Assembly (NCBI GenBank): GCA_004376575.1
Contig: SOJN01000046.1
Span: 48,709 to 112,708 of the forward strand
From: a candidate division TA06 bacterium
GTDB taxonomy: Bacteria > Hydrothermota > DG-26 > E44-bin18
Reading direction: 5' to 3'
DNA: 64,000 nt
Within the stretch, counting starts at the first letter, position 1, and each line of letters opens with the position of its first letter. Of the stretch, positions 32,503-64,000 are shown piece by piece. The notes under the pieces were generated by a model. It had not been told where the DNA came from, made no database searches, and saw only the letters and a list, made by a program, of their open reading frames with translations. Position numbers and translations under genes: made by a program.

Positions 32503-37632
<5,130 letters not shown>

Positions 37633-42422: not shown

Positions 42423-42425
42423 TCC

Positions 42426-42848: not shown

Positions 42849-42883
42849 TTACCACCCTGACTAGGGTGGCACGAAACGTATCA

Positions 42884-43129: not shown

Positions 43130-44485
43130 CTATGCTGAGATGCCGTACTTTTTTATCTTTCTGTAAATGGTCTTTCTGCCCACGCCGAGCATGTCAGCAG
43201 CCCTGCCCTTGTTTCCTCCGCACTCACTCAGGGCCTGTTCTATGAGCTGCCTCTCCATCTCTCCAATAGTAGGCATGGCACCAGGCTTGGAGAGCCTCGT
43301 GTTGGATCTGCGTTGCAGAAGCTTTGATGGAAGGTTTTGTGGCATCAGGACCTCGTCACAGTTGAGGGCGAAGGCTCTTTCCACGACATTTTCCAGTTCT
43401 CGGACATTGCCCGGCCAATCGTAGTATGCGAATGTTTCCATGCAGGCGGGAGCTACAGACTTGACCCTTCTGTTGTATTTTTCGTTAAAAATCTTGATGA
43501 AATGGTGCACCAGTATGGGTATGTCGCCTTTTCTTTCGCGCAGGGGAGGTATCTTTATGTGTACAACACTCAGTCTGTAGTAGAGGTCATTTCTCAGGGC
43601 CTTTTGTGCCAGCGCTTCGTCAACGTCGGCGTTGGTCGCGGCGATCAGCCTCACATCTGTGGGAATAGTCTGGGTACTTCCTACTGGCCTGATCTCTTGG
43701 TCCTGCAATACGCGTAGAAGCTTCACCTGGAGGAAACCGGGCATCTCACCAATTTCGTCCAAGAACAAGGTTCCACTGTCGGCAGCCCTGAAGAGGCCGA
43801 CGTTATCGCTTATTGCTCCGGTGAAAGATCCTTTCTTGTGACCAAACAGTTCACTCTCCAGAAGGTGGTGGGGGATTGCACCGCAGTTGACCGGTATGAA
43901 CGCCTTTTGCGCTCTCTTGCTGTTGAAGTGAATTGCTCTGGCCACCAGTTCCTTGCCTGTTCCACTCTCACCTTCAATAAAAATAGGACTGTCGTTTGCG
44001 GATATTCTGTGGATTATTTCGTTTATTTCACGCATCTTTGGGGATATGCTCACCAGGACGCCGAACTCCTTCTGTTCATCGAGACGTTTCTTGAGGAATG
44101 TATTCTCCTCCTTCAAGCTCCTTTTTTCCATTATGTTGGTGATCACGTGATTTATTTCCTCCATGCGTGTTGGCTTGGTCAGATAGTCAAAGGCTCCCAG
44201 CTTCAGGGCTGAAACTGCAGAGCTCACAGTTGCAAAGGCGGTTAGCATCACAGCCTCGATACTGTCATCTATGCTTCTTATTGATCTCAGTAGCTCAATC
44301 CCGTCCATCTTCGGCATCTTCAGGTCAATTATGGCAATGTCGTACTGGGAATTTCGGATCTTCTCGAGTGCTTCAGGGCCATCGGCCGCAGTTTCCACCT
44401 TGTGTCCATATGGGGTCAATCCGTCCCTCAGAGCGTCTCTCACATCCTCTTCATCGTCGACTATAAGTACCCTTGCGCTCCCCAT
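43130..44485 (-). CDS. NtrC-family sigma-54-dependent response regulator
   Basis: VLIVDDEEDVRDAL receiver, [21 protein letters not shown], and a C-terminal HTH. Confidence 0.85.
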   Translation of the reverse strand: MGSARVLIVDDEEDVRDALRDGLTPYGHKVETAADGPEALEKIRNSQYDIAIIDLKMPKMDGIELLRSIRSIDDSIEAVMLTAFATVSSAVSALKLGAFDYLTKPTRMEEINHVITNIMEKRSLKEENTFLKKRLDEQKEFGVLVSISPKMREINEIIHRISANDSPIFIEGESGTGKELVARAIHFNSKRAQKAFIPVNCGAIPHHLLESELFGHKKGSFTGAISDNVGLFRAADSGTLFLDEIGEMPGFLQVKLLRVLQDQEIRPVGSTQTIPTDVRLIAATNADVDEALAQKALRNDLYYRLSVVHIKIPPLRERKGDIPILVHHFIKIFNEKYNRRVKSVAPACMETFAYYDWPGNVRELENVVERAFALNCDEVLMPQNLPSKLLQRRSNTRLSKPGAMPTIGEMERQLIEQALSECGGNKGRAADMLGVGRKTIYRKIKKYGISA

Positions 44486-44732
44486 TTAGACCCTTTCGGA
44501 CAGACTGGCCCGCCCTTTAAGATTGCGCCGGCAGGCTCATTTCAGAAGAATTGGCCCAGTTTGGCTTTCCCTCCGGCCAGTCAAGGGTAGAATGACTTAT
44601 AGCGGAAAGGCGGGTGTGTGTCAAGGGAAATCTTGGTTCTTGGGTCACTTTTTGGGACACAGGTCACAATTGTCTCGGTTGGGGCCAAAACGGCCTTCCG
44701 TCGTATACTGCATACTGCACGTGAATTTGGTC

Positions 44733-44761
44733 TTGACAACACCGTGGTATTTCCCTATAGT
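44733..44761 (+). promoter_or_regulatory. sigma-70-type promoter (TTGACA-17-TATAGT)
   Basis: Consensus boxes about 75 nt upstream of the sigma54 activator ATG at 44837. Confidence 0.4.
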
Positions 44762-44836
44762 TATCGGTGGGTAGGGCAGGGACCGGGGTGTGCACGCAGC
44801 GTTCGTAATCTTCAGTGCAGGACTGGAGCCGACATT

Positions 44837-45820
44837 ATGGAAGGTGCAGCCCACCCATTTGAGTTTTCCGGGCTGATCAGTAAAGACGGCAAGATGCGGG
44901 CCGTCTTTAACCTGATTGAGAAGGTTGCCTCCACTAACTCGCCAGTACTGGTGCTGGGGGAGACCGGAAGCGGCAAGGAACTTGTGGCTAGGGCCATACA
45001 TGAGAGGAGCCTCAGAGCGGTCGCTCCTTTCATCGCCATAAACTGCGCGGTGCTGTCCGAAACTCTCCTTGAGAGTGAACTCTTCGGGCACGAAAGGGGT
45101 GCGTACACAGGTGCAGTATCCAGAAAACATGGGCTGTTCGAAGTCGCAGATAAGGGAACTATTTTTCTGGATGAGATTGGGGACATGCCTCAAAAGGTTC
45201 AAGCGAAACTCCTCAGGGCTCTTGAAAGCAAGTCGTTCCGAAGGGTGGGAGGGACCAGAGATGTGAAGGTTGATGTGAGGTTGCTTTCCGCATCCGCGAT
45301 GGACCTGGCAGTAGCAATCGACAATCGTGTTTTCAGGAAAGATCTTTATTATCGACTAAGCACTGTCGTAATAGAAATACCACCTCTACGGGACAGAAGG
45401 GATGACATACCCGTGTTGGTTGAGTTCTTTCTCAAGAGGCTGGAAAGGGCGGCGGGCGGAAGGAGAGTGCGCATCACAGGTGCGGCTGTGGATGCTTGTT
45501 GCACCTTTCACTGGCCTGGTAATGTGAGGGAGCTGGAGCATGTGATAGAAAGGTCTTACGTACTCTCCGAGGGAGATGTGATAGATATTCTTGATCTGCC
45601 CGAAAGGTTAAGAGAGATCAGCAAAGCACCATCCGCCGACGCACTTGTTCCGCTCGAGGAAATAGAGAGGCGCTACATAGCCAGGGTCCTGAAGGAAACC
45701 GGTGGGAATAGGACGAGGGCGGCCCGGATTCTGGGAATCGACAGGAAGACTCTCTACAGAAAGGTGAGAATGGGGCAGATTAACCCAACTGGCTCTCCGC
45801 AGGGGCAAAAAACCACATAG
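44837..45820 (+). CDS. sigma-54 activator lacking a regulatory domain (PspF/HrpS-like AAA+ + HTH)
   Basis: [15 protein letters not shown], the GAFTGA motif in its variant form GAYTGA, and a C-terminal Fis-type HTH. The start chosen is [10 protein letters not shown]. The track N-extension from 44618 is probably non-coding. Confidence 0.75.
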
Positions 45821-46513: not shown

Positions 46514-47220
46514 TTGGCGATGTCGGAGTCGTCCAAATCAATCTATCTGATTGGCTTTTTCTTTTTCGTTACTGCTGCTGCTGCACAGGAATCAGAGCCC
46601 TACTGGAAACTGGGCAATGTTCTTCCTGATTTTGGCCGCGACTCCTATGGTGAAGACGCTTACGAAAGAAGCAGTGCATTCAGAACCGACATAAACATTG
46701 TTAGGGCCGGTCTCGACTCAGATTGGCTCTACATAGAGATAGACTGCGAGGATTCCTTCTCTGGCAGCAGTGATGACCATGCAATAGAGTTGGACAACGA
46801 CCCTCTAGACGAATCAGATAGGGGTGACTGGCTCATATACGTTGGTGGGTGTGATGCTTTGGTCGATTCGGTCTGGGTCAAGGGCAAGAATGTGGGGAAG
46901 TTGTGCGGGCGCAGGCAAGAATTTATGGATTTGACCTGATGCAGAACTTCCCGAACCCGTTTGTAAACGTGACTTCAATGCGGTTCTCAGTTCCGGGTAG
47001 ATCATCTTCAAAAGAGAAAGTGAAAACATCTATCGACATTTTTGACGTGTCGGGTCGGTTGATCAGGAGACTCATACGGGAAGATATGTTCCCCGGCGTG
47101 TATCAGGTGGTCTGGGACGGAAAGACAACGGAAGCAAAAGGCGCTCCGTCAGCGATCTATTTGTGCAGATTGAAGATTGGAGAAAGGAGCGGAACAAGAA
47201 AGGTTCTTCTGCTAAGATAA
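46514..47220 (+). pseudogene. secreted T9SS-CTD protein split by a -1 frameshift near 46890-46925
   Basis: The frame-2 ORF (46514..46939) encodes a signal peptide and an N-domain. The T9SS CTD (FDLMQNFPNPF...IDIFDVSGRLIRRL...YLCRL) continues in frame 1 up to 47220. Confidence 0.5.
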
Positions 47221-47616: not shown

Positions 47617-49251
47617 TTGCCAAAAAAAGAGGTATACACTTTCTTAGTAGTCTTCTGGTGCATACTAGTGCTCACCTATGGAACATCTTCAGGTGTGAGC
47701 GTCAACTGGGCTGGGGTATGCGGCTCAAGCAAATACCTGCAGGATGAGAATGACCGTAATCTCAAGGGTGTGTGGTTTGATTTCAGCTCGTGCGGACACA
47801 CAGTGTACGACCTTGTTTACCTGGTCTGGGACCAGGATATGGACGGCATTGAAGAGTTTGACTGTGATAGGCAGTTGGACGGAGACAGCATAGCAGACAG
47901 TATTTTCATAGGCCAGGGCGTTTTCTGCAACACTCCACCATGTTCTTCTGGTGGATTTTCCACAAACTTTACCTGGGGCGGTGAAGGCGACCTAGACACT
48001 TTTTACGTAATAGCGCTGAATGATACAACGCGTGCGTGGGCTACCTACTACGGAACGAGCGCTCAGCACAGCCCTTCTCTCTGGGAGGTTGACAACACTC
48101 AGGAGGCCGCAACGATAATCTGTAATGCAAATAGCACTTGGAAAACGGATACCGAGTTTCCAGACTCAGCGACCTTCACCGGGACCTCGATTGCGGGTAA
48201 TGCAGAACCAGGTGATAGGAAAGTTGGTATGGCTAAGATAGCAGCAGTAATAGGTACGGAAACTGCTATTTGGAATTCGATTAAGGTGGACAATGGGCCC
48301 AGCGCTGGATGCACCAATGATGACGAGGACATAGATTCAGTCAAGATATATAGGGAGGTTTCTGGAGCTGGCTTCGATCCCAGTGATGATCTGCTCATAG
48401 GTGAGGCGGAGTGGGGGCCGGGCCCTCCAGATGGGGGAACAGCCACAGTCACTTTCTTCGACCCGGAAACGTTGACCACCACCTCTGTAGATTACTACAT
48501 AGCTTTTGATATTGAAGCGAGCGCAGTCCGGAGCCACTGTGCCGCTGCCTGCATTCAGAATGACACATACTTTGGAATAAGTGCACCCGACTGCATTGAT
48601 GGGAACTTTCCATTCTGCTCTGGTGACGCGGGCCTTCCAGTGGAGATATCGAGATTCGAGGCTTTCGCAGGCGACAGGATGGTCACTCTTGAATGGACAA
48701 CCCAGACCGAGATCGATAATAGAGGCTTTCATATTTACAGGGCTTTGTCCGAAGATGGTGTCTTTTCCAGAGTGAATCAGGAGATGATCCCCGGGGCTGG
48801 AAATTCATCTTTGCCCATTGATTATGAGTACATAGATAGGGGCTTGAATAATGGGACTGAATATTTCTACAAATTGGTAAGTGTCACCTACGGCAATGAC
48901 TTGTCCTACTATGAAAATGTGGTCAGTGCGATGCCAAGGAAAGAACACTGGGGGAGGTCGGCAGACCAGACAGGCCTCTACGGATGCAGTCCCAACCCCT
49001 TCATCAGCTCTGCTCAGATTTCCTTCCAGTTGAGAGATGAGGCGGTCTCGAGCAGCGTGAGTCTTCAGGTTTACGACGTTTCCGGGAGGCTGGTCAGGAC
49101 CCTTGCGCAGGGGCATTTCGATTCTGGAGCCCACATGGTCCCGTGGGACGGGCTCGATGAGGGAGGCAAGCCTGTTCCCTCCGCTCTTTACTTCTGCCGG
49201 CTGAGGACCGACGAGGTTATTTCCATCATGAAGGTCGTAAAGGTAGATTAG
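47617..49251 (+). CDS. secreted protein with an N-terminal 'VNW / WDxDxDGI' domain and a T9SS C-terminal sorting domain
   Basis: Signal peptide. VSVNWAGV...LVWDQDMDGIEEFD is similar to the 53548 and 57220 proteins. The C-terminus LQVYDVSGRLVRTL...PSALYFCRLRT...KVVKVD is the CTD. Confidence 0.75.
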   Translation: MPKKEVYTFLVVFWCILVLTYGTSSGVSVNWAGVCGSSKYLQDENDRNLKGVWFDFSSCGHTVYDLVYLVWDQDMDGIEEFDCDRQLDGDSIADSIFIGQGVFCNTPPCSSGGFSTNFTWGGEGDLDTFYVIALNDTTRAWATYYGTSAQHSPSLWEVDNTQEAATIICNANSTWKTDTEFPDSATFTGTSIAGNAEPGDRKVGMAKIAAVIGTETAIWNSIKVDNGPSAGCTNDDEDIDSVKIYREVSGAGFDPSDDLLIGEAEWGPGPPDGGTATVTFFDPETLTTTSVDYYIAFDIEASAVRSHCAAACIQNDTYFGISAPDCIDGNFPFCSGDAGLPVEISRFEAFAGDRMVTLEWTTQTEIDNRGFHIYRALSEDGVFSRVNQEMIPGAGNSSLPIDYEYIDRGLNNGTEYFYKLVSVTYGNDLSYYENVVSAMPRKEHWGRSADQTGLYGCSPNPFISSAQISFQLRDEAVSSSVSLQVYDVSGRLVRTLAQGHFDSGAHMVPWDGLDEGGKPVPSALYFCRLRTDEVISIMKVVKVD

Positions 49252-50528: not shown

Positions 50529-50598
50529 ACTAAATAGATCGAGAAAGAAATCGTAATTGTGCAAACTGATAAAAAGCAGACAACATGAGGAGACAAGC

Positions 50599-53520
50599 AT
50601 GAATAAAAGTACAATAGTATTCAGCAACTGGAAATGTAGGAGATTGAAATTCCTGGCCAGCCTGGCTGCAGCAGGTTGCGTCTTGCTTTTCGCAAACCGG
50701 TGTGCAGGCGAGGTTGCCTGGTGGGACACAGACCATGACGAGAGAGCTCAGCTTATTGTTCAAAATCAATCCAGCAATACGCTTTACGCAGGGTATCCTG
50801 TGGCTGAGAGTCTGGACACCGGAACTCTCGTTTCTGCTGGCGACATGCTTGCCTCTGGAAACGATCTGAGGATTATTTACTACAATGGCGCGTCCAACGT
50901 GGAATTGGACAGGCGAATCATTTACATGAATTCCGACACCACGTTGGTCTGGTTCGCTGTTCAGCAGGATATAGCGCCTTCAGCAGCTGACAGCAACTAC
51001 TGGATGTACTACAACCACCCTTCAGCTTCAGCACCAAATGTTGACATTGACAGCATATTCGTGCCACCAAAAGATGGTTACAGTGCTGCACTCTACTTTT
51101 TCGAATCAGGCTCCGGTACGACCCTTGAAGACACTTCCGGGAATGACAATGATGGGACTGTTAATAACATGGACAACACCAACTGGGTCGAGGGAAAGCA
51201 CTCTCTTGGCCTTCACTTTGACGGGTCTAGTGAATATATCTCCGTTCCTGACGACGCCATCCTTGACATAGAAGACGAGATAACCTTGGAGACCTGGTTC
51301 AAACTCGATAATGCCTTCGGCCCCGATTCTGAAAACTATGACATGTCGCTCCTAGAAAAAGGGCCTTACGGCCTTAGGCTCGACCACGTTACAGGAGAAC
51401 TTGTATTCAGTCTTTCCGGTTGGACTGTGGAGTACGACTCTCCTCAGAGTGAGATCTATTCCTTGGCCCTCTACAACGGGAAGCTTTTCGCTGGTACTGG
51501 AGAGAGTGGCATAGTCCATACCTTTGACGGAGCCACGTGGTCTAGCGAGGACATCACTGATGAAAAGGATGTGATGTGCCTTTGCGTTTACGGAGGCAAG
51601 CTTTATGCTGGCACAGGTGAAGCGCAGGGTATTGGAGGCGGGAAGATTTATGTCTACGATGGCATAAGCTGGGTCCTGGAGTATGATACGCCAAGCAAAA
51701 ATATCCGCTCGATGGCCGTATACAGAGATACCCTTTTCGCAGGGAGCGGGAATTCGGGGTTGGTCTATAAGTTTGACGGGACTTCCTGGTCAAGTCAGGA
51801 TATTACAAACGATTGGGACATTTTCTCTCTACGAGTATACAACAACAAACTGTATGCTGGTACGGGGAACCCTTCGGCACAAGGCAAGGGATATTTCTAC
51901 TCGTACGATGGAACTTGGTCTCTTGAGTACGACAGCCCGTCAAAGAACATTTATTCGATGGCCGTATACACAGATACCCTTTTCGCGACGAGCGGGGATG
52001 AGGGGTTGGTGTATAAGTTTGACGGGACTTCCTGGTCGAGTGAAGATATTACATCACAAAAGGATGTGCTCTCCATATTTGTATATTCAGGCAAGCTCTA
52101 TGCAGGTACCGGGACCTTTGGATCTCCTATAGGGGCCGGGCTAATATACGAGTATGACGGCTCCTCATGGTCTCTTTCCTATAACACCCCTCAAAAAGAT
52201 GTATTCAGTCTTGGCGATTACAATGGCCTTCTCTATCTAGGCACTGGCAATTCTGGAATAATCTACACCTACCCTGATGAGGCGGTCTTGGCGTCTGCGC
52301 AGGGTTTATGGAACGCCGCCCAGTTCTACCACGTTGCAGGAACCTTTGATGGTTCTGACATGAAGATTTTTGTGGATGGGATTTTGGATACATCAAACTC
52401 GGTAAGTGTGATCATAGACAAGGACACTTCAGCACTGATGATTGGCGGAGGAATCGACACCACCTTTTTCAGAGGTTCTCTAGATGGTATGGGAGTTTCA
52501 GGTGTGGCGAGGACCGATTTCTGGTACGCCAAAATATCGCCAGAACCCACTGTGGCACTGGCTGGCACGGGGACATATACCTCCATGGGAGATATCAACA
52601 GGAGTACTTCGGACGGAAACATCGCCATCTATTGGCGGAGTGTCAGCGGAAGGACCTATGACGTTTTTTACTGCGATACTCTCCAGGGAACCTACACGGA
52701 TGTAGCAGATGTGGTTGCCAGTGGTGACACCACGAGCTGGACAGATGATGGTTCTGCTACGGGTACGCATCCTGATTCTGTTGTGGCCAGGTTCTACAGG
52801 GTTGAGTGCCAGACAGGAGCACTGAGCAGAAATACCACGGGCAAGATGAAGAGATCGATTGTCTCCGGGATGCAGCTCGTCAGCAACCCATTTATTCCAT
52901 ACAACTCATCGATTCAGAGTGTGCTTGGCGGACAGTTGACAGGAGCTGCGGATGAAGGGTATGCAGACAGGGTCTGGAAGTACGATACTGACATAGACGA
53001 CTACGTCTTTGCATGGCTGGTTGCTGGAGTTGGCGCGCCTTACGATGGAAAGTGGTGGAGTTCTCAGGACTTTGAGGAATCAACAATGGATCTGGGTCCT
53101 GACTGCGGTTTCTGGATACAATCGAGAAATGCAGCCCAGGAGATGACTTTTGTTGGTGAGGTCTCGGATACTTCTGACAGGGTGATATCGATTGTCTCAG
53201 GGATGCAGTTGTTTGGGAGCCCCTATCCGGATACAGTTCTCCTGAAGAACTCAGACCTGATTGAAGATGGTGCGACAGGTGCTACGACTGAACTGAATGC
53301 CGATAGGATTTGGTGGTGGGATCCTGATTCAACTAAGTACGACTATGCGTGGTTGGTGGACGATACGGGAGGCCCGAACGATAGTCTATGGTGGGATTCA
53401 GACCCCTGGGGTGAGACTTCAATCACTCTGAGGCCCGGCGAGGGTTACTGGTATCAGACAAGAGGTAACCCATTTACCTGGAGTTATTCGAAGCCCTATG
53501 ATGCGCCACCAAATCCGTAA
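50599..53520 (+). CDS. large secreted repeat protein (about 45-aa YAGTG/beta-propeller-like repeats, a LamG-like region, and a C-terminal tandem about-120-aa domain) with no T9SS CTD
   Basis: ATG 50599 has a GAGGAG RBS and a signal peptide. Repeats of the form LYAGTG...G.VY.FDG.SWS...DIT. The C-terminal 250 aa (VARFYRVE...GKWWSSQDF...WWDSDPWG...YWYQTRG) is shared with 55168..57201. Confidence 0.75.
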   Translation: MNKSTIVFSNWKCRRLKFLASLAAAGCVLLFANRCAGEVAWWDTDHDERAQLIVQNQSSNTLYAGYPVAESLDTGTLVSAGDMLASGNDLRIIYYNGASNVELDRRIIYMNSDTTLVWFAVQQDIAPSAADSNYWMYYNHPSASAPNVDIDSIFVPPKDGYSAALYFFESGSGTTLEDTSGNDNDGTVNNMDNTNWVEGKHSLGLHFDGSSEYISVPDDAILDIEDEITLETWFKLDNAFGPDSENYDMSLLEKGPYGLRLDHVTGELVFSLSGWTVEYDSPQSEIYSLALYNGKLFAGTGESGIVHTFDGATWSSEDITDEKDVMCLCVYGGKLYAGTGEAQGIGGGKIYVYDGISWVLEYDTPSKNIRSMAVYRDTLFAGSGNSGLVYKFDGTSWSSQDITNDWDIFSLRVYNNKLYAGTGNPSAQGKGYFYSYDGTWSLEYDSPSKNIYSMAVYTDTLFATSGDEGLVYKFDGTSWSSEDITSQKDVLSIFVYSGKLYAGTGTFGSPIGAGLIYEYDGSSWSLSYNTPQKDVFSLGDYNGLLYLGTGNSGIIYTYPDEAVLASAQGLWNAAQFYHVAGTFDGSDMKIFVDGILDTSNSVSVIIDKDTSALMIGGGIDTTFFRGSLDGMGVSGVARTDFWYAKISPEPTVALAGTGTYTSMGDINRSTSDGNIAIYWRSVSGRTYDVFYCDTLQGTYTDVADVVASGDTTSWTDDGSATGTHPDSVVARFYRVECQTGALSRNTTGKMKRSIVSGMQLVSNPFIPYNSSIQSVLGGQLTGAADEGYADRVWKYDTDIDDYVFAWLVAGVGAPYDGKWWSSQDFEESTMDLGPDCGFWIQSRNAAQEMTFVGEVSDTSDRVISIVSGMQLFGSPYPDTVLLKNSDLIEDGATGATTELNADRIWWWDPDSTKYDYAWLVDDTGGPNDSLWWDSDPWGETSITLRPGEGYWYQTRGNPFTWSYSKPYDAPPNP

Positions 53521-53532
53521 TAGAGAACAGAA

Positions 53533-54420
53533 ATGGAGGTGATGCCCGTGAAAAAGTTAGTTGCGTGTATTTCGTTGACGGCGTTGGTCTTTCTGATTGC
53601 AGCCCCGGCCGCATCTAATGTGGGGATAAATGTCAACTGGGGTGCATTCACTCATCCCATACTGGACAAGGGTGGCAAACCGCTGGATGATTTGTGTCTT
53701 GTTCAACTCATCTGGGATGCTGATGGAGATGGAATCGATCCGCCTGGTGAAGATGGTCTTCCTTCTGGCGGAGATGAGCTTCTTGATATCTCGTATACAG
53801 GATGTGGCAGCTTCTTTGCAGGCAAGTTCTCCGAGAATACGAATCTCAAGATTGTGGGAAGAGGTGAGTGTATCTATGTGAGAGCCTGGAATGCAGAAAA
53901 GATCGGTAAGGCCACACACTATGGTGATACGAGAGTTTTGGATCCCGGTCTGTGGGTCGTAGACAACAGGGTTGGCTTGACTGTGGATGCTACAGAAGAC
54001 ACGCCCTGGGGGACAACGCTTTGGTGGGGACCGGCGGACGTCCCGCTTGGGAGGCTGGCCAGGTACTATCGTACGGAACTCCTTCAGAACCGTCCGAATC
54101 CCTTCTTGGGGAATACGACAATAGGCTACTGCGTTCCTGGCGTACGAACCTGGGAGATGATGAAGGGTGGAGACAGGAATGCCGTATATGATGAGACTGA
54201 CCTGAATAGTGTGAGTGTCAGGATATACGATGTGTCTGGGAGGATGGTGAGGAAAGTAGTTGGTGCACACAGGCTGCCCGGCTATCACCAAATCGCCTGG
54301 GACGCAAAAGACGACCTTGGGAGAAGAGTTCCCTCGGGCTCATATTTCTGCAGGCTGTCTATTAAGAAGTCAGATGGGTCGGCCAGGACGATTACCAAGA
54401 AGATGGTGCTTTTGAAATAA
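53533..54420 (+). CDS. small secreted 'VNWGAF / WDADGDGID' protein with a T9SS C-terminal sorting domain (partner of the upstream large protein)
   Basis: Signal peptide. VNWGAFTHPILD...LVQLIWDADGDGIDPPGEDGLPSGGDELLD. CTD LLQNRPNPF...VRIYDVSGRMVRKV...SGSYFCRLS...KKMVLLK. The likely start is GTG 53548, which has GGAGGTG upstream. Confidence 0.75.
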   Translation: MEVMPVKKLVACISLTALVFLIAAPAASNVGINVNWGAFTHPILDKGGKPLDDLCLVQLIWDADGDGIDPPGEDGLPSGGDELLDISYTGCGSFFAGKFSENTNLKIVGRGECIYVRAWNAEKIGKATHYGDTRVLDPGLWVVDNRVGLTVDATEDTPWGTTLWWGPADVPLGRLARYYRTELLQNRPNPFLGNTTIGYCVPGVRTWEMMKGGDRNAVYDETDLNSVSVRIYDVSGRMVRKVVGAHRLPGYHQIAWDAKDDLGRRVPSGSYFCRLSIKKSDGSARTITKKMVLLK

Positions 54421-54958: not shown

Positions 54959-55167
54959 GCTTAATGCATACGTGGGGTGCGGTGACTCGGTGGGAAATAG
55001 GCAATTGAACGGAAGGTTGGTTGTTACTAAGTGACAATAGCCGAGAGACTTACTAGGTCAAATCCTCTCGCACTGACTTATCTCTACTGCTATGAGAGCC
55101 TGGAATATGTTGTTATATTTGTCAGGAACAACGCAATGTGTTGTTACATGCCGTAGGAGGGGTTCTC

Positions 55168-57201
55168 ATGAAACCAAAACTTGTTAGAAGTAGATTCTCG
55201 GTGACTGCCCTGGTCGTCATCAGCATCATGTTCTGGGGAGTGACTTTCTCAGGAGACTGGCAGAGATACAGTGTGGATGAGAGGCCGCCAATGGACGTGA
55301 TTGCCCTGGCTGTTGGAGATGTCGATAATGATGGGGACAATGAAGTGGTAGCTGGAGGAACTGGCTCGGGACTTAGAATTTATGATGGAGCAAAATGCTC
55401 CTGGAACTCCGAAGAGATTGTCGCGGGATTGAAGATAAATTCAGTCACAGTTTCAGATGCAGACAATGATGGCGAACAAGAAGTAGTCTGCGGCACAGCC
55501 GATAAAAGGGTCATTCTGTATCAGTTCACGAGGAATGAGTGGATTGAACACATAGTCGATGCCAATGCGGGTAAAGCCGTTTTGTCAGTAGCCTGTGGAG
55601 ACGCCGACAATGACAGCTACATCGAGATCGTCGCGGGGACAGAGGGAAAGAAAGTATACATCTATGAGGGCTCAGGGGATTCGTGGACAAAGACATTGGT
55701 CGATGGAAATGCCGTGAACGATGTGATGGCCGTGGCTGTTGGAGATGCGGATGGAGATGGTCAGATGGAGATAGTGTGCGGGACAATGGGGAAGAGGGTT
55801 TACGTGTATGAGAAAAACGGGGAATCGTGGGAAAGGAGCGAAGTTGATCGCAAGGTCGGTTCCGCGGTAAGGAGTATTGACATAGGGGATTGTGATGGGG
55901 ATGGGGCGATGGAGATTGTTGTCGGCACAGACGAGAAGGGAGTGAACCAGTACAAGTGGGACGGATCGTCATGGTCAATGGAGACTATTGACTCGAAAGT
56001 GGGAGGAGAGGTTTACGGCGTGAGGATCTGTGACGTGGGTGACGACGTGTCAAGAAGACTGGCTGTCATAGTAAGAAGGAAGAAGGGGAAGAAGGGGAAC
56101 AAGGGGAACAGACTTCTGCTCTATAAGAAAGGACCGTCTGGCTGGGTTAGCACAGAGGTAGACGCTGAGGTGGAAGGAGAGGCGACAGCTCTCGCCATAG
56201 GGGATGCTAATGATGACGGGCACATTGAGCTACTTGCTGGCACATCGAAAAAGAGGAACCTTTTCATCTACGACCAATGGGCATTCTATGGTTTACAAAA
56301 AGTGACAGGGACTGATGACATTGTGCTGAACTGGCCGGGTAAACCTGGTATAACATATGAAGTTTTTTATTCCCATCAACCTTACGCGGGATTCCAGTAC
56401 GTTGCCGGTGTATCTGCGGTGACTGACTCGGTTCAGTGGATTGATGATGGCAGCATTATAGGCGTACACCCCAAGGATGTTGTTGCCAGGTACTACAGGA
56501 TCAGACTGAAGGGTTTCAAGAACTTTTCCAATACTGTTGGAAAATTCTCTAGAGCACTCGAAACTGAAATGCATCTTGTGTCTATGCCGCTTATCCCTTA
56601 TTCCACATCCGTACAGGATGTCATCGGAGACCAGCTGACGGGTGCACCAGATGAGTCGTATGCGGACAGAGTGTGGAAGTGGGATGCAGATATTCAAGAC
56701 TTTGCATACGCCTGGCTTGTTGACGGAGTCGGGCCGCCGTTTGACGGCAAGTGGTGGAGTTCTGGTCATTTCGGACCCTCCACTATGACCCTCAATTTTG
56801 GAGAGGGATTCTTCATTCAGACAAGGCACGAGAATCAAATGGTCACCTTTCTAGGCTCTGTGCCAGAGTGTGTCGTCTCCGTGGCTGATATCCGTCCGGG
56901 GTTGCAGATGATTGGCACACCATCGCCTGAGATTCTCCCGCTTGACGGTTGTGGGTTCCAGGCTAGCGGCGCAAAAGGAGCTCCGTCCGAGCTTTTGGCT
57001 GATAGAGTGTGGTACTGGGACGAGGATGGCCTTTTCTATACATACTCATGGCTTATGGACCGCACTGACGCACCTGAAGACGCCAGATGGTGGTCCTCAG
57101 ACCCCATGGGCCCGACTAAGATGACTATGATACCAGGGCAAGGTTACTGGTATCAGGCGAGAGGGACTGGATTTGCTTGGAGTTTTGCAAGACAAAGGTG
57201 A
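55168..57201 (+). CDS. secreted FG-GAP-repeat beta-propeller protein with a C-terminal tandem about-120-aa domain and no CTD
   Basis: AGGAGG RBS. Six or seven FG-GAP units (GDxDNDGxxEVVxGT...). The C-terminal 250 aa is paralogous to the end of 50599..53520. Confidence 0.75.
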   Translation: MKPKLVRSRFSVTALVVISIMFWGVTFSGDWQRYSVDERPPMDVIALAVGDVDNDGDNEVVAGGTGSGLRIYDGAKCSWNSEEIVAGLKINSVTVSDADNDGEQEVVCGTADKRVILYQFTRNEWIEHIVDANAGKAVLSVACGDADNDSYIEIVAGTEGKKVYIYEGSGDSWTKTLVDGNAVNDVMAVAVGDADGDGQMEIVCGTMGKRVYVYEKNGESWERSEVDRKVGSAVRSIDIGDCDGDGAMEIVVGTDEKGVNQYKWDGSSWSMETIDSKVGGEVYGVRICDVGDDVSRRLAVIVRRKKGKKGNKGNRLLLYKKGPSGWVSTEVDAEVEGEATALAIGDANDDGHIELLAGTSKKRNLFIYDQWAFYGLQKVTGTDDIVLNWPGKPGITYEVFYSHQPYAGFQYVAGVSAVTDSVQWIDDGSIIGVHPKDVVARYYRIRLKGFKNFSNTVGKFSRALETEMHLVSMPLIPYSTSVQDVIGDQLTGAPDESYADRVWKWDADIQDFAYAWLVDGVGPPFDGKWWSSGHFGPSTMTLNFGEGFFIQTRHENQMVTFLGSVPECVVSVADIRPGLQMIGTPSPEILPLDGCGFQASGAKGAPSELLADRVWYWDEDGLFYTYSWLMDRTDAPEDARWWSSDPMGPTKMTMIPGQGYWYQARGTGFAWSFARQR

Positions 57202-57219
57202 AAAAATGGAGGTGTCTAC

Positions 57220-58146
57220 ATGCAGAAGGCGTGTGTGATTCTCTTGGGATTTGCGTTATGTCTTGTGGTTGCGAATCCGCCATCATCTGGGGCTGGTGTG
57301 GTTGCCAACGGGGACGCGTTTAGAAAAGCCATACTGGACGATGTTGGAGTAGCGGTAAACTGGGGCGCATTTCAAAATCCCATACTTGACCATGATGGTT
57401 CAGTGATAGACGATGGATGTCTTGTTCAACTCATCTGGGACGCTGATGGAGATGGAATCGATGAGCCCGGTGAAGGTGGCATTCCCTCTGGAGGGGATGA
57501 ACTTCTGGATGTCTCGTACACCAGACAGGGTTCATTCTTCCCCGGCAAATTCTCGAACAATACAACACTAGGTAACGTGGGTGTAGGTGAGCGCATCTAC
57601 GTGCGTGCCTGGAACGCAGAGACTGTTAAGAACGCAACTTACTATGGCGATACTAGACTGGTCCAGCCGAGTCTGTGGAGTGTCGGCAACAGCATGAGAA
57701 TGGCACTGGACGCGACTGAGGGTGGGAGTTGGAGCACGACAGCGCGTTGGTCACTGCAAGGAGTCCTGTTGTGGAGGTTGGAAAGGACCTATTCTGCGGA
57801 GCTCCTCCAGAACCATCCGAATCCGTTTAAAGGGCATACCGCCATAACCTATTGGGTTGCGGGTAGACGAGTGTGGGGAATGACCGATGATGGAAAGGAC
57901 ATAATCACCTATTACGGCGGATCTGATAACAACATTGCCAACGTGTCCGTGTACGATGCAACAGGTAGATGCGTTCGCAAATTAGTTGATGAGGCGCGGG
58001 TGCCTGGATTTTACCAGGTCGTCTGGGATGGAAGAGACGATCTTGGACAAAAGGTGCCCTCGAGTTCATATTTCTGCAGGCTCTCTACAAAAAACTTAGA
58101 CGGCTCGGCCACAACGATCACCAAGAAGATGATACTTCTGAAGTAG
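57220..58146 (+). CDS. small secreted 'VNWGAF / WDADGDGID' protein with a T9SS CTD (paralog of 53548..54420)
   Basis: GGAGGTG RBS in the same context as its paralog. VNWGAFQNPILD...LVQLIWDADGDGIDEPGEGGIPSGGDELLD. CTD LLQNHPNPF...VYDATGRCVRKL...SSSYFCRLS...KKMILLK. Confidence 0.8.
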   Translation: MQKACVILLGFALCLVVANPPSSGAGVVANGDAFRKAILDDVGVAVNWGAFQNPILDHDGSVIDDGCLVQLIWDADGDGIDEPGEGGIPSGGDELLDVSYTRQGSFFPGKFSNNTTLGNVGVGERIYVRAWNAETVKNATYYGDTRLVQPSLWSVGNSMRMALDATEGGSWSTTARWSLQGVLLWRLERTYSAELLQNHPNPFKGHTAITYWVAGRRVWGMTDDGKDIITYYGGSDNNIANVSVYDATGRCVRKLVDEARVPGFYQVVWDGRDDLGQKVPSSSYFCRLSTKNLDGSATTITKKMILLK

Positions 58147-58593: not shown

Positions 58594-58622
58594 TTGACTC
58601 TCACCTATCTCCAGTGTAGTAT
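58594..58622 (+). promoter_or_regulatory. sigma-70-type promoter (TTGACT-17-TAGTAT)
   Basis: Boxes seen in sequence. They place the transcription start about 58630, which supports GTG 58674 (GAGGAGGGG RBS) as the start codon. Confidence 0.4.
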
Positions 58623-58673
58623 AAACCACTGGTGGAATCGGGCTTAATTAAGTTTGTGAGGAGGGGTCTGCGT

Positions 58674-61600
58674 GTGGCTTTCCGATCGAGAGGCTTGCCT
58701 CTCCTTTTTCTCATTCTGGCATATCCGTGCCTGGCCCTCTCTTTTGGCGCTGAGACAGAACGCACATCCCTGATAGAAATTGTCGCCCTGGGCCCTGAGA
58801 GAGTAGAGATAGAAGTCACCTGTGGCTCTATCGCTAACATGGCGTTGACAGGCGACTCTCTGAGTACCTTTTCGGTTACGATCCCCGGGTTTGATCAAGA
58901 TTGCACACCTTTTGGCCCCTGTCTGCCGGTCAAGGGCTTTGCCGTTGGCATTCCGGTGGATGCAGACCCCGCAGTCACCATTATTGAGAAGAGTTCTTAT
59001 GATCTGAAGATACCATCAGGATGGCCAAGCTCGCTGGGGAGTTCTGAGATTCAATCTCCCGTTGAGATTGGACTGGTTGGCTTCATAAGAGATCTGAAAG
59101 TTGCCCAGATTCTGATCCATCCCGTCGCTTATCTTCCTGAGACCAAAACCCTGAGGGTTTATGATCACATCAGGTTTGTTGTCAGATTTAAATCCAATTA
59201 TGCTGGTCCAATTGATGGCCTCGGTACCCAGGACCCTCTGGATAGGCTTCTGTACTCTCTGGTCATAAATCCCGAGCAGTCGAGTAAATACAAGGTGAGA
59301 AGGCAAAGAGATAACAGACAAAGCAATCTGCTCGCCGGTGGAACTGAAAGGTATAAGATCCTTGTTCAAGAAGAGGGAATATACAGGATAACTGGTTCTG
59401 AGCTTGAGGCTGCGGGCATGGAGATCGAGTGGGTAGACCCTCGTATGATCCACCTTGAAAACCTTGGTCAACCTGTTCCCCTCTATGTCCACGGGGATGC
59501 TGATGGGAAGCTGGACGAGGACGACTACCTGGAATTCTACGGAGAAGGACCAAGAGGTGACTATACTTATTTCAACATGTATGCCACTTCTAATGTGTAC
59601 TGGCTCTTTGTGGGTGATTCTCTAGGTCTTCCCATGATTGAAGAGGATGGTGGTCTTCTGGAGACTGACCCAGCGCAGTTGGAAATGCCGACCTCTTACG
59701 ATTTCGATGTACACACCGAAGTGGATAACTGGTTCGAAAGGCTTCCCAACGACACCATGGTGCAGCAGGATATGTGGTTCTGGGACATGGTGAGTGCGAG
59801 TGAGCAGGCAATAAAGGACTTTCCTCTGGATCTTCCGGATCCGGATTTGGGCTCAGGGGACACCGTTGTGGTGAAACTGGGGCTTCAGGGAATGAGCCAT
59901 CATGGGGATGTCAACCCCGACCACCACTGCTTATTCTATTTGAGCGGTGCACTTGCAGGTGGAACCTACTGGGATGGACAGCACACGCATGTTTTCAGTT
60001 CTGAGGAGGAAGGAACAGGACTGGAAAACACTGTGCTCTCTGAGTCCGGCAACAAGCTTACCATCGTGATGCCCGGGGATACGCCGGCGGGATTTGAGGA
60101 CAGAGTTCTCGTTAACTGGATTGAGATTAGCTACACAAGGCAGTATAAGGCAGAAAATGATTACATCCGTTTTTCCAAACCTCGCAATGGAAGTATCGGG
60201 CTGTATCAGTTCACCATAGAGGGTTTCACGACCCCTGAGGTTTCCATCTACAAACTGGGAAAGAGTAAGCTGGCAAATCTGTCCATAGAGCCTGTCATAT
60301 TATTTGGGGACACGTCATACCAGGCTGCTTTCCAGACGAGAATAGTCTCTGAGGGTGTGGAGTTTGTGGCCGTCGCGGAATCCAGAAAAAAGAAAGTTGT
60401 TTCGCTGGAGAAAGATCAACCTTCTGACCTGCACTCAAGCCTGAATGGTGCCGACATCATAGTCGTGGTGCATGATTCCCTGGCCGTTTCCGCAGAAGAG
60501 TATGAGACTTTTAGAGAGTCCCAGGGCTACAGGGTCGAACTGGTGAACGTGAGTGATGTTTACGATGAGTTCAGTTATGGAATAAGAGACGCAAGCGCGA
60601 TAAGAGATTTCTTGAGGTATGCCTATTTGAATTGGATTCCTCCCGCTCCTTCGATGTGTGTTCTGATTGGCGATGGTAGTAGTGACGATAGAGACCTGAA
60701 CAAGAGGGGAGGGAACCTGATCCCTGTTCACGTTGAGAGGTCCATCTACAGCGGGCTGGTGGCCAGTGATAACTGGTACGCTTGCATCATCGGCGATGAC
60801 TTTCTCCCTGATATGATTGTCTCCAGGTTTCCTGTATTGACTCGCCAGGAGCTTTCGTCTGTCATAGAAAAGCTCAAAAGGCATGAGGACAGATCCACCG
60901 TGGGTGCATGGAGGGGGAGAGTGCTCTGTGCTGCGGGTGAAGGAGGGGGCTTCGGGGTAAGATTCAGAGAGCTGATGGAAGACAGCATCGCGAAAATCTA
61001 CCTTCCAATCTGGGCTGACGGAAAGAGGGTATACGCAGAGCATCTGCCCGGAGTTGACCCTGACCCCTTTTACGGAGACAAGGGCGATCTTTTCGGCTTC
61101 TTAAATGATGGTGTGTCGGTAGTCCAGTATCTCGGCCACGGAAGTGGAGGGACTTGGTCCAACCCTTATCTTTTGACTCCCCAGGATGTGCCGGACCTGG
61201 ACAATACGGGTAAGATACCAGTGGTGGCGAGCTTCACATGTTTCACTTCCGTGTTCGACCAGCCCAGCAGACAAGGCCTGGGTGAAGCGTTGTTCCTCGA
61301 ACCGGAAGGGGGCGCAGTCGCGGTGATCGGGGCAACATCCCTCGGCTATTTCTGGGAGGATGTGGACCTGGCGCGCTCATTCAACCAGACGATGGTGGAG
61401 GATTCCACAAGAACCGTGGGGTCGCTCTTCTATGGTTCAAAACTGAACTACGCATTCTCCAACTATGGAGGCTACGCCGCCACAATGATTAAGTGCTACT
61501 GCATGCTGGGTGATCCCGCCTCCCGGTTCTCATTACCAGTTCGAGAAGTTGAAGTGGGTGTCTATCCCCGGTCTGTGGGCAAAGGCGACAGCGTGAGATT

Positions 61601-63509
61601 GGAGTTGCGTTTGACTTCGCAGAAGCCGGATTCCGCGTTCGTCTGTGTGAGCGATTCAGCCGGCACCTTTGGTGAGACAGTCATTCCGCTGGCTGGTGGC
61701 CAGGGAGCGATCAGCTTTGAGGTACCTATGGGAGTCAAGTCGGGAATGGCGTTGGCCAGAGCCTATGCGTGGGATACAGAATCGGCATTTGACGCTCTGG
61801 GCGCCGCGGAGTTCGCCATCTCATCGCCGTCCATCTATCTGGTAAAGACCATTCCCCAGAAGCCCGGACCATGGGATTCGGTTCACGTGATGGCCTGTAT
61901 CCAATACAGTCCTGGGATCGACTCGGCAAACACCTACTGGGCAAGATCGAGAAGCCCTCAAAACTGGAACACGATAGGGATGACAGCCATTGCCGGAGAT
62001 ACCTTCCAGACCTCATCGCCTATTCCTCAACAAACTCCGGACAAGCCGGTCTGCTATAAGGTAGTTGCGTACGGGTCAGATGGAAAGACGCTGGAGAGCG
62101 CGCTGTACTCATACCAGGTCCCGGATAGACCTAATCTCCTTCTCCTCAGCGAGGAAGACATCTACCTTGGAGGAGAAAGAAGGGTCACGTTGTCTGCGAA
62201 GGTCTTCAACACCGGAAGCGTTGAGGTTGACTCATGTCCGGTCCTATTCAAAACTCTTCCTGACAGTCTTTCCATTGGCGAAGGTTGGGCCTCTGTGCCG
62301 GTCCTCGGGTACGGGGAGGCTTCTGTCCCCTGGTCCCTCGGAGGGTTGCTCTGGAGTGTCTATGTCGAGATAGACCCTGGAAACGAGATTGATGAGTCTC
62401 GGGAGGATGACAACTCGAGCATCAACTCACCAACCACAATCATCGTGGATAGATTCAATGTCTCAAAGGAATCCGGCACCTCAGGATGGGTGAGCAGCAT
62501 TGACTCCAATCTAGTTTGCAGCATACCATCCGACGCTGTGAGCGACAGCGTTGTACTTCAGATTCAGGTTGTAGAACCGCACGTGATGGAACAGCCGAGT
62601 CTGAGGTTTGCCGCCCTTCCAGGTTTCAAATCGGGAGGTGCGTACAAGCTCTCCCTTGCTGATAGCAGTGACACTCTGCTGTCGGGAAAGGAAATGGTCC
62701 TCAAAATGAGATTCGACAGTGAGGACTCCTTGAATAACGAGGAGCTGGATCTCATGGGAATCTACGCGTTCAATCCGCTCACTTTGAAATGGAAAAAGTA
62801 CGGAGGCCAAATAGATTCTTCAGAGATGAGTCTTCAGGCGAGAAAGCTTCGGGAGTATGCAGTGATCACGAGCGGTGACGTTCAACCACCTGAGATCAAA
62901 GTCTCTGTCAAGGACCAGGCCTTTGCCAGTGGAGACTTTGTCCCCGCCAGCCCTGCAATTTCTTTTCTCCTGATAGACGACAATGGCATTGATATGGAGA
63001 AAGGGCTTCTTCTGGTTCTGGACGGTGAGGATGTTGGGATTGCGGACTATGTGTACCCTGGAATATTTGGTGATGCAAATGAGGTGCAGGTCGGTTTTTA
63101 CCCTCATCTAACAGATGGTCCTCATACCATAAGGGTTGGTTGCTGGGACTGCTCTGGCAATTTCAGAAGTTTGGACTTCGCCGTACAGGTTCAGTCCGAA
63201 TTCCAGGTGACAGGCCTGGGCAACTACCCCAATCCCGTAGAGTCAAGAGAGACCGTTTTCGCATTCACCATGACTGCAGTCGCCGATGAGGCTGAGCTGA
63301 GGATTTACACACCTTCGGGAAGGCTCGTCAAATCGTTCGACAGAGGGAGATGGCGGGATCTCAAGGAGATAGGGTATCATGAAGTGGTCTGGAACCTGAC
63401 AGACGAAGATTGGTTTCCAGTAGCGAATGGTCTCTACTTCTATATGTTCAGGGCTAAGATAGAGAATAAGACCATAAAGGAGACGGGCAAATTGGCGGTA
63501 TTGAGATGA
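58674..63509 (+). CDS. very large secreted peptidase C25 (gingipain-like cysteine protease) with a T9SS C-terminal sorting domain
   Basis: Signal peptide MAFRSRGLPLLFLILAYPCLALSFG. Gingipain catalytic region VQYLGHGSGGTWSNPY...KIPVVASFTCFTSVFD (His in GHG, Cys in FTCF). CTD LGNYPNPVESRETVFAF...LRIYTPSGRLVKSF...GLYFYMFRA...KLAVLR. The track start is GTG 58632. Confidence 0.75.
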   Translation: MAFRSRGLPLLFLILAYPCLALSFGAETERTSLIEIVALGPERVEIEVTCGSIANMALTGDSLSTFSVTIPGFDQDCTPFGPCLPVKGFAVGIPVDADPAVTIIEKSSYDLKIPSGWPSSLGSSEIQSPVEIGLVGFIRDLKVAQILIHPVAYLPETKTLRVYDHIRFVVRFKSNYAGPIDGLGTQDPLDRLLYSLVINPEQSSKYKVRRQRDNRQSNLLAGGTERYKILVQEEGIYRITGSELEAAGMEIEWVDPRMIHLENLGQPVPLYVHGDADGKLDEDDYLEFYGEGPRGDYTYFNMYATSNVYWLFVGDSLGLPMIEEDGGLLETDPAQLEMPTSYDFDVHTEVDNWFERLPNDTMVQQDMWFWDMVSASEQAIKDFPLDLPDPDLGSGDTVVVKLGLQGMSHHGDVNPDHHCLFYLSGALAGGTYWDGQHTHVFSSEEEGTGLENTVLSESGNKLTIVMPGDTPAGFEDRVLVNWIEISYTRQYKAENDYIRFSKPRNGSIGLYQFTIEGFTTPEVSIYKLGKSKLANLSIEPVILFGDTSYQAAFQTRIVSEGVEFVAVAESRKKKVVSLEKDQPSDLHSSLNGADIIVVVHDSLAVSAEEYETFRESQGYRVELVNVSDVYDEFSYGIRDASAIRDFLRYAYLNWIPPAPSMCVLIGDGSSDDRDLNKRGGNLIPVHVERSIYSGLVASDNWYACIIGDDFLPDMIVSRFPVLTRQELSSVIEKLKRHEDRSTVGAWRGRVLCAAGEGGGFGVRFRELMEDSIAKIYLPIWADGKRVYAEHLPGVDPDPFYGDKGDLFGFLNDGVSVVQYLGHGSGGTWSNPYLLTPQDVPDLDNTGKIPVVASFTCFTSVFDQPSRQGLGEALFLEPEGGAVAVIGATSLGYFWEDVDLARSFNQTMVEDSTRTVGSLFYGSKLNYAFSNYGGYAATMIKCYCMLGDPASRFSLPVREVEVGVYPRSVGKGDSVRLELRLTSQKPDSAFVCVSDSAGTFGETVIPLAGGQGAISFEVPMGVKSGMALARAYAWDTESAFDALGAAEFAISSPSIYLVKTIPQKPGPWDSVHVMACIQYSPGIDSANTYWARSRSPQNWNTIGMTAIAGDTFQTSSPIPQQTPDKPVCYKVVAYGSDGKTLESALYSYQVPDRPNLLLLSEEDIYLGGERRVTLSAKVFNTGSVEVDSCPVLFKTLPDSLSIGEGWASVPVLGYGEASVPWSLGGLLWSVYVEIDPGNEIDESREDDNSSINSPTTIIVDRFNVSKESGTSGWVSSIDSNLVCSIPSDAVSDSVVLQIQVVEPHVMEQPSLRFAALPGFKSGGAYKLSLADSSDTLLSGKEMVLKMRFDSEDSLNNEELDLMGIYAFNPLTLKWKKYGGQIDSSEMSLQARKLREYAVITSGDVQPPEIKVSVKDQAFASGDFVPASPAISFLLIDDNGIDMEKGLLLVLDGEDVGIADYVYPGIFGDANEVQVGFYPHLTDGPHTIRVGCWDCSGNFRSLDFAVQVQSEFQVTGLGNYPNPVESRETVFAFTMTAVADEAELRIYTPSGRLVKSFDRGRWRDLKEIGYHEVVWNLTDEDWFPVANGLYFYMFRAKIENKTIKETGKLAVLR

Positions 63510-64000
63510 GTTTTAGGCTGGGCATAGGTATTGTTGCAGTAGTTCTTGTGTTTCCTGTTACATCATCAGGGGGAAGATATGCCGGCGACTTCCTGGACAT
63601 TGGGGTGGGGGGAAGGGCCCTGGGTATGGGGGGAGCTTTTGTTGCTCTGGCCAACGATGGTAGTGCGGCGTTTTTCAATCCTGCTGGTTTTGGACAGCTT
63701 GAAAAGAAGGGAATAACCCTTATGCACACCTGGCTCTTTATGGGGATGGCGAACTATGACTTTTTGAGTTTTGCCGGCCCTGTTGGAGACGGTCTTGGCA
63801 TAGGCCTCTCGTTGGTAAGGCTGGGCGTGGACGAGATTCCCATCTTTCCCGAGCTTTCAGGAACACCTGATGAAAGGAGAGACTCCCTGGAGTTGAGGCC
63901 TGACGGTACGCCTCTGGGGTATTTTCAAGATGCGGAATATGCCGCTTACCTGAGCGTGGGCAAGGCTATCACTTACGAGTTTGGAAAAGGTGTGAGGTAT
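63506..64000 (+). CDS. FadL-family outer-membrane beta-barrel, possibly a PorV/PorQ-type T9SS protein (3'-truncated by the window end)
   Basis: The ATG overlaps the peptidase stop (ATGA). Signal peptide. GGRALGMGGAFVALANDGSAAFFNPAG resembles the FadL/PorV N-terminal motif. Confidence 0.45.
   Translation, partial: MSFRLGIGIVAVVLVFPVTSSGGRYAGDFLDIGVGGRALGMGGAFVALANDGSAAFFNPAGFGQLEKKGITLMHTWLFMGMANYDFLSFAGPVGDGLGIGLSLVRLGVDEIPIFPELSGTPDERRDSLELRPDGTPLGYFQDAEYAAYLSVGKAITYEFGKGVRY

Follow-up and report, generated by a model that had tools for sequence, protein, structure and literature searches.

In Porphyromonas gingivalis and Flavobacterium johnsoniae, two subunits of the T9SS (type IX secretion system) attachment complex, namely the C25-family peptidase PorU and the outer-membrane barrel PorV, are coded by adjacent genes (PG0026/PG0027 and Fjoh_1556/Fjoh_1555, respectively), with PorV anchoring PorU (PMC5445135). 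The P. gingivalis PorU is itself a protein with a T9SS C-terminal domain (CTD) that is exported by the T9SS and whose CTD is not removed (PMC11285876, PMC5445135). Mutation of its catalytic cysteine (C690A) abolishes CTD cleavage (PMC4560394). Further, an arginine 32 residues after this cysteine, Arg722, is conserved in the PorU proteins of Bacteroidetes, is absent from the gingipains, and has been proposed to be a sortase-like arginine (Gorasia 2015, PMC4560394). According to reviews, no T9SS genes occur beyond the FCB (Fibrobacterota–Chlorobiota–Bacteroidota) group; they hold the system to be possibly present in several FCB phyla, including the Cloacimonadota, and leave candidate division TA06 unmentioned (PMC11285876). 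Our own literature search returned nothing specific on the T9SS in TA06. Here we analyze a stretch of 64,000 nucleotides (hereafter, the window) from contig SOJN01000046.1 of a candidate division TA06 bacterium, near whose 3′ end the gene for a very large C25 peptidase overlaps that for an outer-membrane barrel. We consider it likely that this locus is a porU–porV operon, coding for two subunits of a T9SS attachment complex and followed by a third, co-translated gene for an FN3-type lipoprotein.

The TA06 pair resembles the PorU/PorV pairs of P. gingivalis and F. johnsoniae in the His/Cys dyad of the C25 domain, the PorU-type N-terminal domains, the C-terminal region and the CTD of the peptidase, and in the N-terminal G-x-R...NPAG segment of the barrel. 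As in TA06, the canonical porU lies directly 5′ of porV on the same strand. The differences are as follows. First, the P. gingivalis genes are separated by a gap of 75 bp and are predicted to be transcribed separately (PMC5445135), whereas those of TA06 overlap by 4 nt. Second, unlike the P. gingivalis and F. johnsoniae pairs, the TA06 locus has a gene for an FN3 lipoprotein attached to it as a third member. Third, candidate cargo genes lie directly upstream of the TA06 pair, whereas in P. gingivalis no cargo genes are found beside the T9SS genes (PMC5445135).

Other described proteins share parts of this plan. The gingipains RgpB and Kgp (1CVR, 4RBM) have the C25 fold and its dyad, a T9SS CTD and the lack of Arg722 in common with the TA06 peptidase, which also shows a weak propeptide-like match at its N-terminus; in contrast, they have no match to its N- or C-terminal PorU-type regions, and a conserved pairing with PorV is not characteristic of gingipains. 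The NCBIfam families PorU2 and PorV2 (NF052324/NF052325), a putative second sorting pair on which our literature search found nothing relevant, likewise combine a PorU-related peptidase with a PorV/Q-related barrel, but the TA06 proteins score far under their cutoffs (192 vs. 450 and 105 vs. 325 bits). Finally, the FadL/TodX transporters belong to the same FadL-like class of β-barrel folds as the TA06 barrel, with the N-terminal segment placed inside the barrel.

Gene model and affinities of the peptidase

The longest forward-strand open reading frame (ORF) at the locus opens with a GTG at 58632, ends at 63509 and would specify 1625 residues. An initial annotation of this DNA had placed the start at 58674 and given the product as 1625 residues long: the start is that of two independent public gene calls (NCBI and Logan), whereas the length belongs to the longer ORF, the product from GTG 58674 having 1611 residues. 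This start is further supported because the Shine–Dalgarno-like GAGGAGGGG stands just 5′ of it. The sigma-70-like site listed in Table 1 came from a consensus scan that found one site against 0.3 expected and is thus weak evidence only. At the other end of the gene, the TGA stop (63507-63509) overlaps the ATG of the next gene (63506-63508) in the sequence ATGA, as had been read initially. The exact 1611-residue product is also on record in the 129-kb contig JAUUXS010000002.1 (source of locus L001 in Table 1) of GCA_030590645.1, a metagenome-assembled genome (MAG) of candidate division TA06, and in one Logan assembly; the former supplied the remainder of the barrel gene, which is cut off by the end of the window, and 10 kb beyond it. 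The public database name of this same sequence is 'hypothetical protein E3J62_03720 [candidate division TA06 bacterium]', and its UniRef label is 'Gingipain domain-containing protein'.

The assignment to family C25, originally made from the GHGSGG and FTCF motifs, is borne out by a Pfam Peptidase_C25 match with an E-value of 1.4e-78 over residues 610-965 of the 1625-residue ORF. The motifs lie within YLGHGSGG (61128-61151) and SFTCFTS (61230-61250), and the histidine and cysteine of the dyad, His822 and Cys856 in the 1611-residue numbering, are invariant in 18 of 18 database homologs and in all 83 loci that we fetched. Among NCBIfam families the T9SS sortase PorU (NF033707) is the top match at 320.5 bits, covering model positions 7-741 of 1095 together with a C-terminal stretch, and PorU2 is the second at 191.9 bits. 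The PorU alignment begins at residue 240 and takes in the PorU-type N-terminal domains that are absent from the gingipains; the same coverage of the model (7-741) is repeated in six relatives from five phyla. A phmmer search of the PDB gave a consistent picture: the top match was the P. gingivalis PorU (6ZA2; E = 4.7e-36, 126.8 bits), aligned over two segments, one catalytic (residues 585-1002) and one C-terminal that includes the CTD (1401-1594), whereas RgpB and Kgp matched the catalytic core alone (E = 1e-14 to 8e-10, 40-56 bits).

Between these two segments lies a clade-specific middle region of about 400 residues, compared to about 100 in the P. gingivalis PorU—that is, some 300 residues longer—which has no family match in Pfam or NCBIfam but does display scattered invariant residues common to the clade. 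As for the CTD, which the initial annotation had also proposed, the curated models stay below threshold on the peptidase (Pfam FlgD_ig, 20.8 bits vs. a cutoff of 27). It is nonetheless corroborated by the alignment to the PorU C-terminus (independent E-value 1.3e-8) and by a score of 28.4 bits (E = 4e-8) on a hidden Markov model (HMM) built from four CTDs of neighboring genes. Reciprocally, the C-terminal part of a profile of the PorU-like proteins matches the CTDs of the neighboring genes, and the peptidase ends in the same ...KLAVLR as the neighboring CTD proteins. Judged by its sequence, the peptidase is thus most likely a PorU-type enzyme and not a gingipain-type cargo protein.

Table 1. 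Features of the TA06 locus, numbered from the first letter of the window unless prefixed with L001 (a locus on JAUUXS010000002.1)
Feature	Coordinates	Strand	Basis or remark
PorU-like C25 cysteine peptidase gene, candidate T9SS C-terminal signal peptidase/sortase	58674..63509	+	NF033707; PDB match to 6ZA2
Candidate sigma-70-like promoter (TTGACT-17-TAGTAT) 5′ of the PorU-like gene	58594..58622	+	Consensus scan, 9/12 matches
Shine–Dalgarno-like GAGGAGGGG	58658..58666	+	8-9 nt 5′ of GTG 58674; read from sequence
Predicted Sec signal peptide (MAFRSRGLPLLFLILAYPCLALSFGA)	58674..58751	+	Basic n-region, hydrophobic core, ALS/FG-type end; read from translation
PorU-type N-terminal domains and C25 catalytic domain (PorU model positions 7-741)	59349..61556	+	Pfam, NCBIfam
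Catalytic His codon, His822, GHG motif	61137..61139	+	Aligns to GHG of PorU
Catalytic Cys codon, Cys856, TCF motif	61239..61241	+	Aligns to P. gingivalis PorU Cys690
Middle region, clade-specific, residues ~1003-1400	61680..62873	+	Unaligned between PorU segments 397-833 and 933-1135
C-terminal region homologous to PorU 933-1135, ending in T9SS-type CTD (last ~90 residues, ...ETGKLAVLR)	62874..63506	+	phmmer 35.8 bits, independent E-value 1.3e-8
PorV/PorQ-family outer-membrane barrel gene, 5′ half (164 of 336 codons)	63506..64000; rest in L001:14833-15843	+	NCBIfam, AlphaFold (AF2), Foldseek
Third gene, 232-residue lipoprotein	L001:15834-16532, just past the window	+	Overlaps the PorV-like stop by 10 nt
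M1-family aminopeptidase with C-terminal T9SS-type CTD	5794-7794	+	Candidate substrate, ~51 kb from the PorU-like gene
544-residue protein with CTD	47617-49251	+	Candidate substrate
Two paralogous two-gene cassettes	50557-54420 and 55138-58146	+	Upstream of the PorU-like gene

The barrel, the third gene and their conservation

The barrel ORF opens with MSFRLG and contains GGRALGMGGAFVALANDGSAAFFNPAG. Its fragment in the window already gave matches to PorV2 (98.9 bits over the first 114 residues), to PorV_fam (52.4 bits) and to PorQ. At full length, it scores 118.9 bits on the PorV/PorQ family model (NF033709), above the cutoff of 90 and spanning model positions 4-324 of 326. It falls under the other cutoffs that we consulted, including those of PorQ (34.9 vs. 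220), PorV2 (105.4 vs. 325) and the Pfam PorV family (18.2 vs. 27). When we modeled the protein with AlphaFold from an alignment of 65 sequences (pLDDT 88.9, pTM 0.81), the first and second ranks in a Foldseek search of the PDB went to F. johnsoniae PorV chains, namely 8gl6_F (E = 2.7e-12, TM-score 0.71) and 6h3i_F (E = 4.5e-11, TM-score 0.69), with FadL at rank 7 (E = 2.7e-5, TM-score 0.48). Profile searches of the PDB gave the same order: the family profile recovered PorV with an E-value of 1.1e-16, and the next match was a FadL homolog at 0.067. Using the profile was necessary here, as phmmer with the single barrel sequence retrieved nothing meaningful from the PDB. Thus, the 336-residue downstream protein is a PorV/PorQ-family β-barrel whose closest solved structure is the F. 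johnsoniae PorV, and the initial call of a PorV-like barrel stands.

To place the pair in a wider context, we scanned one genome per GTDB species with an alignment of eight sequences, which recovered 80 loci whose peptidases align over nearly their full length at 25-33% identity. The ORF translations of all loci were then searched with HMMs of the PorU-like, PorV-like and third-gene proteins. Outside Poribacteria, 36 loci have readable downstream sequence, and in 32 of them the peptidase gene is followed immediately by a PorV-like gene in the same orientation, with spacings from -60 to +472 nt between the stop-to-stop ORFs. These 32 loci come from the Cloacimonadota (10), Calditrichota (7), KSB1 (3), MAGs labeled 'Cytophagia' (2), unclassified genomes (6), and one each from the Latescibacterota, Edwardsbacteria, Kryptonia and a 'Caldisericaceae' MAG. 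The order of the PorU-like and PorV-like genes is conserved across at least six non-Bacteroidota lineages. In a relative from the TA06 clade with 60% identity, both the 4-nt and the 10-nt gene overlaps are kept. Poribacteria show a different pattern: all 40 loci with downstream flank lack a PorV-like gene within 6 kb, and a relative of 28% identity on a 6.1-Mb contig, also without a PorV neighbor, fits this pattern. The full-length peptidase relatives of the forty Poribacteria genomes (loci L021-L082) are 26-28% identical to the TA06 protein, and a CTD is found in 39 of 41 loci.

The third gene codes for a lipoprotein with a lipoprotein signal peptide, an invariant lipobox cysteine, an FN3-like domain and a second β-rich domain. 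It belongs to no Pfam or NCBIfam family. Its homologs, each with a lipobox-like cysteine, likewise stand third in order at 22 or more loci, drawn from at least five phyla, with carriers among the Cloacimonadota, Calditrichota, Latescibacterota, Kryptonia, the 'Caldisericaceae' MAG and unclassified MAGs; the HMM search of the loci found no homolog in those of KSB1. In a profile search of the PDB, residues ~57-140 match the FN3 domains of titin and neogenin. A search of 1.84 billion representatives with the lipoprotein profile was dominated by multi-FN3 repeat proteins and is uninformative on function, and structure prediction was poor (pLDDT 50.2, with 14 close homologs supplied). The lipoprotein may be an unrecognized subunit of the attachment module.

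By analogy with the model developed for P. gingivalis and F. johnsoniae (PMC5445135, PMC4560394, PMC11205867), the locus would operate as follows. After Sec export, CTD proteins would traverse the outer membrane using the T9SS translocon; in the window such cargo would comprise the M1 peptidase along with three or more small proteins coded just upstream of the PorU-like gene. The PorV-like barrel would pick up this cargo and take it to the PorU-like enzyme, which would itself be exported through its own uncleaved CTD and be kept at the surface by PorV. Cys856 would then attack the peptide bond preceding the cargo CTD, and the resulting acyl-enzyme would be resolved either by water, releasing the cargo, or by the amine of a surface glycolipid, anchoring it.

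Departures from the canonical pair and alternative readings

Several observations weigh against placing the locus with the canonical porU–porV pairs. First, the peptidase stays below the PorU equivalog cutoff (320.5 vs. 420 bits), and so do its six relatives, which score 277-416 bits and come from the Cloacimonadota, Calditrichota, Latescibacterota, KSB1, a 'Cytophagia' MAG and Poribacteria. Similarly, the barrel reaches only 42.2 bits on the PorV equivalog (NF033710, cutoff 250), and PorV2 is the model that its N-terminus matches best. Second, the peptidase is about 450 residues longer than the P. gingivalis PorU (1611 vs. 1158), and part of this excess is an N-terminal extension of about 220 residues with weak similarity to Propeptide_C25 (19.3 bits, below the cutoff of 22). 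Third, the column of Arg722 is occupied by serine (GATSLGY, residues ~885-891; window 61335-61343) and by Ser, Gly or Thr in all 83 loci; in the alignment of these loci, the TA06 peptidase has no arginine within one position on either side of the column. The KSB1 and 'Cytophagia' MAG members have an arginine one column after the Arg722 position. Fourth, no porK/L/M/N, sov/sprA, porT, porZ or porQ was found in ~81 kb, comprising the window, 10 kb downstream and 7.5 kb upstream, in a search that covered nearly all ORFs of at least 150 residues in the window. T9SS genes are also scattered in P. gingivalis (PMC5445135), and because of this, the lack of core genes nearby is uninformative. Finally, all of the biochemistry of the pair is inferred.

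The alternative that best survives these departures is that of a sorting system distinct from the canonical one, either paralogous to it or independent of it, in which the peptidase, barrel and FN3 lipoprotein form a self-contained attachment complex of non-Bacteroidota phyla. Such a system would imply other partners (no PorZ or PorQ) and possibly a different chemistry or translocon. We regard this as quite unlikely, even though a number of the above features would sit well with it: the whole clade lies under the PorU cutoff and lacks Arg722, the ~300-residue insert is conserved, an N-terminal extension is present, the barrel N-terminus prefers the PorV2 model, and the overlapping lipoprotein gene is widespread and has no match to a known T9SS family. 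Likewise, Poribacteria have the peptidase without an adjacent PorV, and the genome paper on Caldithrix abyssi reports no Bacteroidetes-type gliding machinery (PMC5317091), yet Calditrichota carry the module. Against it, PorU outranks PorU2 in all seven proteins tested, the CTDs resemble ordinary type A CTDs (with borderline matches to TIGR04183 and Por_Secre_tail), and T9SS components have been reported or suspected in several FCB phyla, including the Cloacimonadota (PMC11285876). Moreover, no genome carrying the module is known to lack the core genes. A related proposal, for which we see a somewhat better though still slim chance, is that these three proteins, the long peptidase together with the PorV-like barrel and the product of the overlapping FN3 lipoprotein gene, make up a surface-attachment module of their own, typical of FCB-type candidate phyla other than Bacteroidota (TA06, Cloacimonadota, Calditrichota, Latescibacterota and Kryptonia). 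In it, the lipoprotein might replace PorZ/PorQ, for example in delivering or positioning the anchor, perhaps with another anchor molecule or translocon.

The initial annotation had instead taken the peptidase for a gingipain-like secreted or surface protease, that is, a T9SS cargo, coded together with its own dedicated PorV-type shuttle. Family C25 membership, the CTD, the weak N-terminal Propeptide_C25 match, the UniRef label and the absence of Arg722 as in the gingipains are all compatible with this reading, as is the large multi-domain build reminiscent of the adhesin-bearing gingipains. It is nevertheless very improbable, as PorU leads the gingipains by about 22 orders of magnitude in the PDB search (4.7e-36 vs. 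1e-14), with a match that runs past the catalytic domain on both sides. Further, in the ~74 kb of the window plus L001 that were searched with the two profiles, there is a single C25 (PorU-like) gene and a single PorV-like gene, and a single-copy-looking pair conserved across many phyla fits machinery better than lineage-specific cargo. Nor does the tight coupling of the two genes speak for a cargo-specific shuttle: because porU–porV adjacency is standard in P. gingivalis and F. johnsoniae, it points to two subunits of the attachment complex, and the notion of a dedicated cargo–shuttle pair is not supported. The cargo label holds only in the narrow sense that PorU, too, is a T9SS export product, one that retains its CTD and is kept at the surface by PorV (PMC11285876, PMC5445135).

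The weakest reading, a generic FadL-type transporter of hydrophobic compounds lying beside the protease without functional meaning, can draw on the FadL-like fold class, the Foldseek matches to FadL, TodX and CymD at about E = 1e-5 and the precomputed Toluene_X (PF03349) matches of some relatives, but is extremely unlikely given that the barrel itself has no Toluene_X match at E ≤ 0.01, passes the PorV/PorQ family cutoff and places PorV far ahead of FadL in both profile and structure searches, and that the 4-nt overlap and cross-phylum synteny argue against a chance position.

Genomic neighborhood and biological implications

Co-occurrence of CTD proteins with T9SS genes has been reported (PMC11285876), and the window holds at least four CTD-bearing candidate cargo genes in addition to the PorU-like gene. 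In the two cassettes directly upstream of the latter (Table 1), the first gene codes for a large protein without a CTD, a LamG protein of 987 residues in one case and an FG-GAP protein of 687 residues in the other. These large proteins share a Trp-rich C-terminal module of ~70 residues and are 47% identical over their last 300 residues. The second genes code for proteins of ~300 residues, 56% identical to each other, with a 'VNWGAF..PILD' N-terminus and a T9SS-type CTD. The small CTD protein of each cassette may carry or anchor the large one. An FG-GAP cassette is also found upstream of the module in the 60%-identical TA06-clade relative. In addition, a stop-to-stop ORF of 121 codons at 46855-47217 (+) is essentially nothing but a CTD (76 bits with the local CTD HMM, 21.8 bits with Por_Secre_tail); it may be what is left of a disrupted cargo gene, or it may code for a tiny CTD protein.

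Further upstream, a polysaccharide biosynthesis and export cluster occupies 9941-31515 (+). It includes Poly_export/SLBB, a Wzz-GNVR tyrosine-kinase-like protein, CpsB, many GT4 glycosyltransferases (one fused to a heptosyltransferase), a radical SAM protein, an O-antigen-ligase-like membrane protein, an initiating phosphotransferase and an Omp85/POTRA protein. That this cluster supplies a surface glycan anchor is speculation. A regulatory island (32.5-45.8 kb) stands between it and the region of the CTD-protein and PorU-like genes. The island comprises a gene at 32503-37632 (-) for a fusion of 1709 residues, combining a Ser/Thr kinase, an AAA_16 ATPase, many TPRs, a GAF domain and a sigma-54 activator with HTH_8, and, adjoining it at 37718-45820, three further sigma-54 activators and a GAF histidine kinase.

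Taken by itself, the finding is a real but ordinary porU–porV pair in a poorly annotated phylum, and its potential for novelty is limited to the FN3 lipoprotein, the long-form architecture, the missing arginine and the PorV-less homologs of Poribacteria. What it does indicate is that the curated equivalog models do not label the T9SS attachment machinery of TA06 and several sister candidate phyla for what it is, the proteins bearing public names such as 'hypothetical', 'Gingipain domain-containing' and 'UPF0164'. To our knowledge, all mechanistic understanding has so far come from Bacteroidota. With a third gene, for a lipoprotein, conserved and Arg722 missing, there are concrete handles on CTD cleavage and anchoring outside this phylum.

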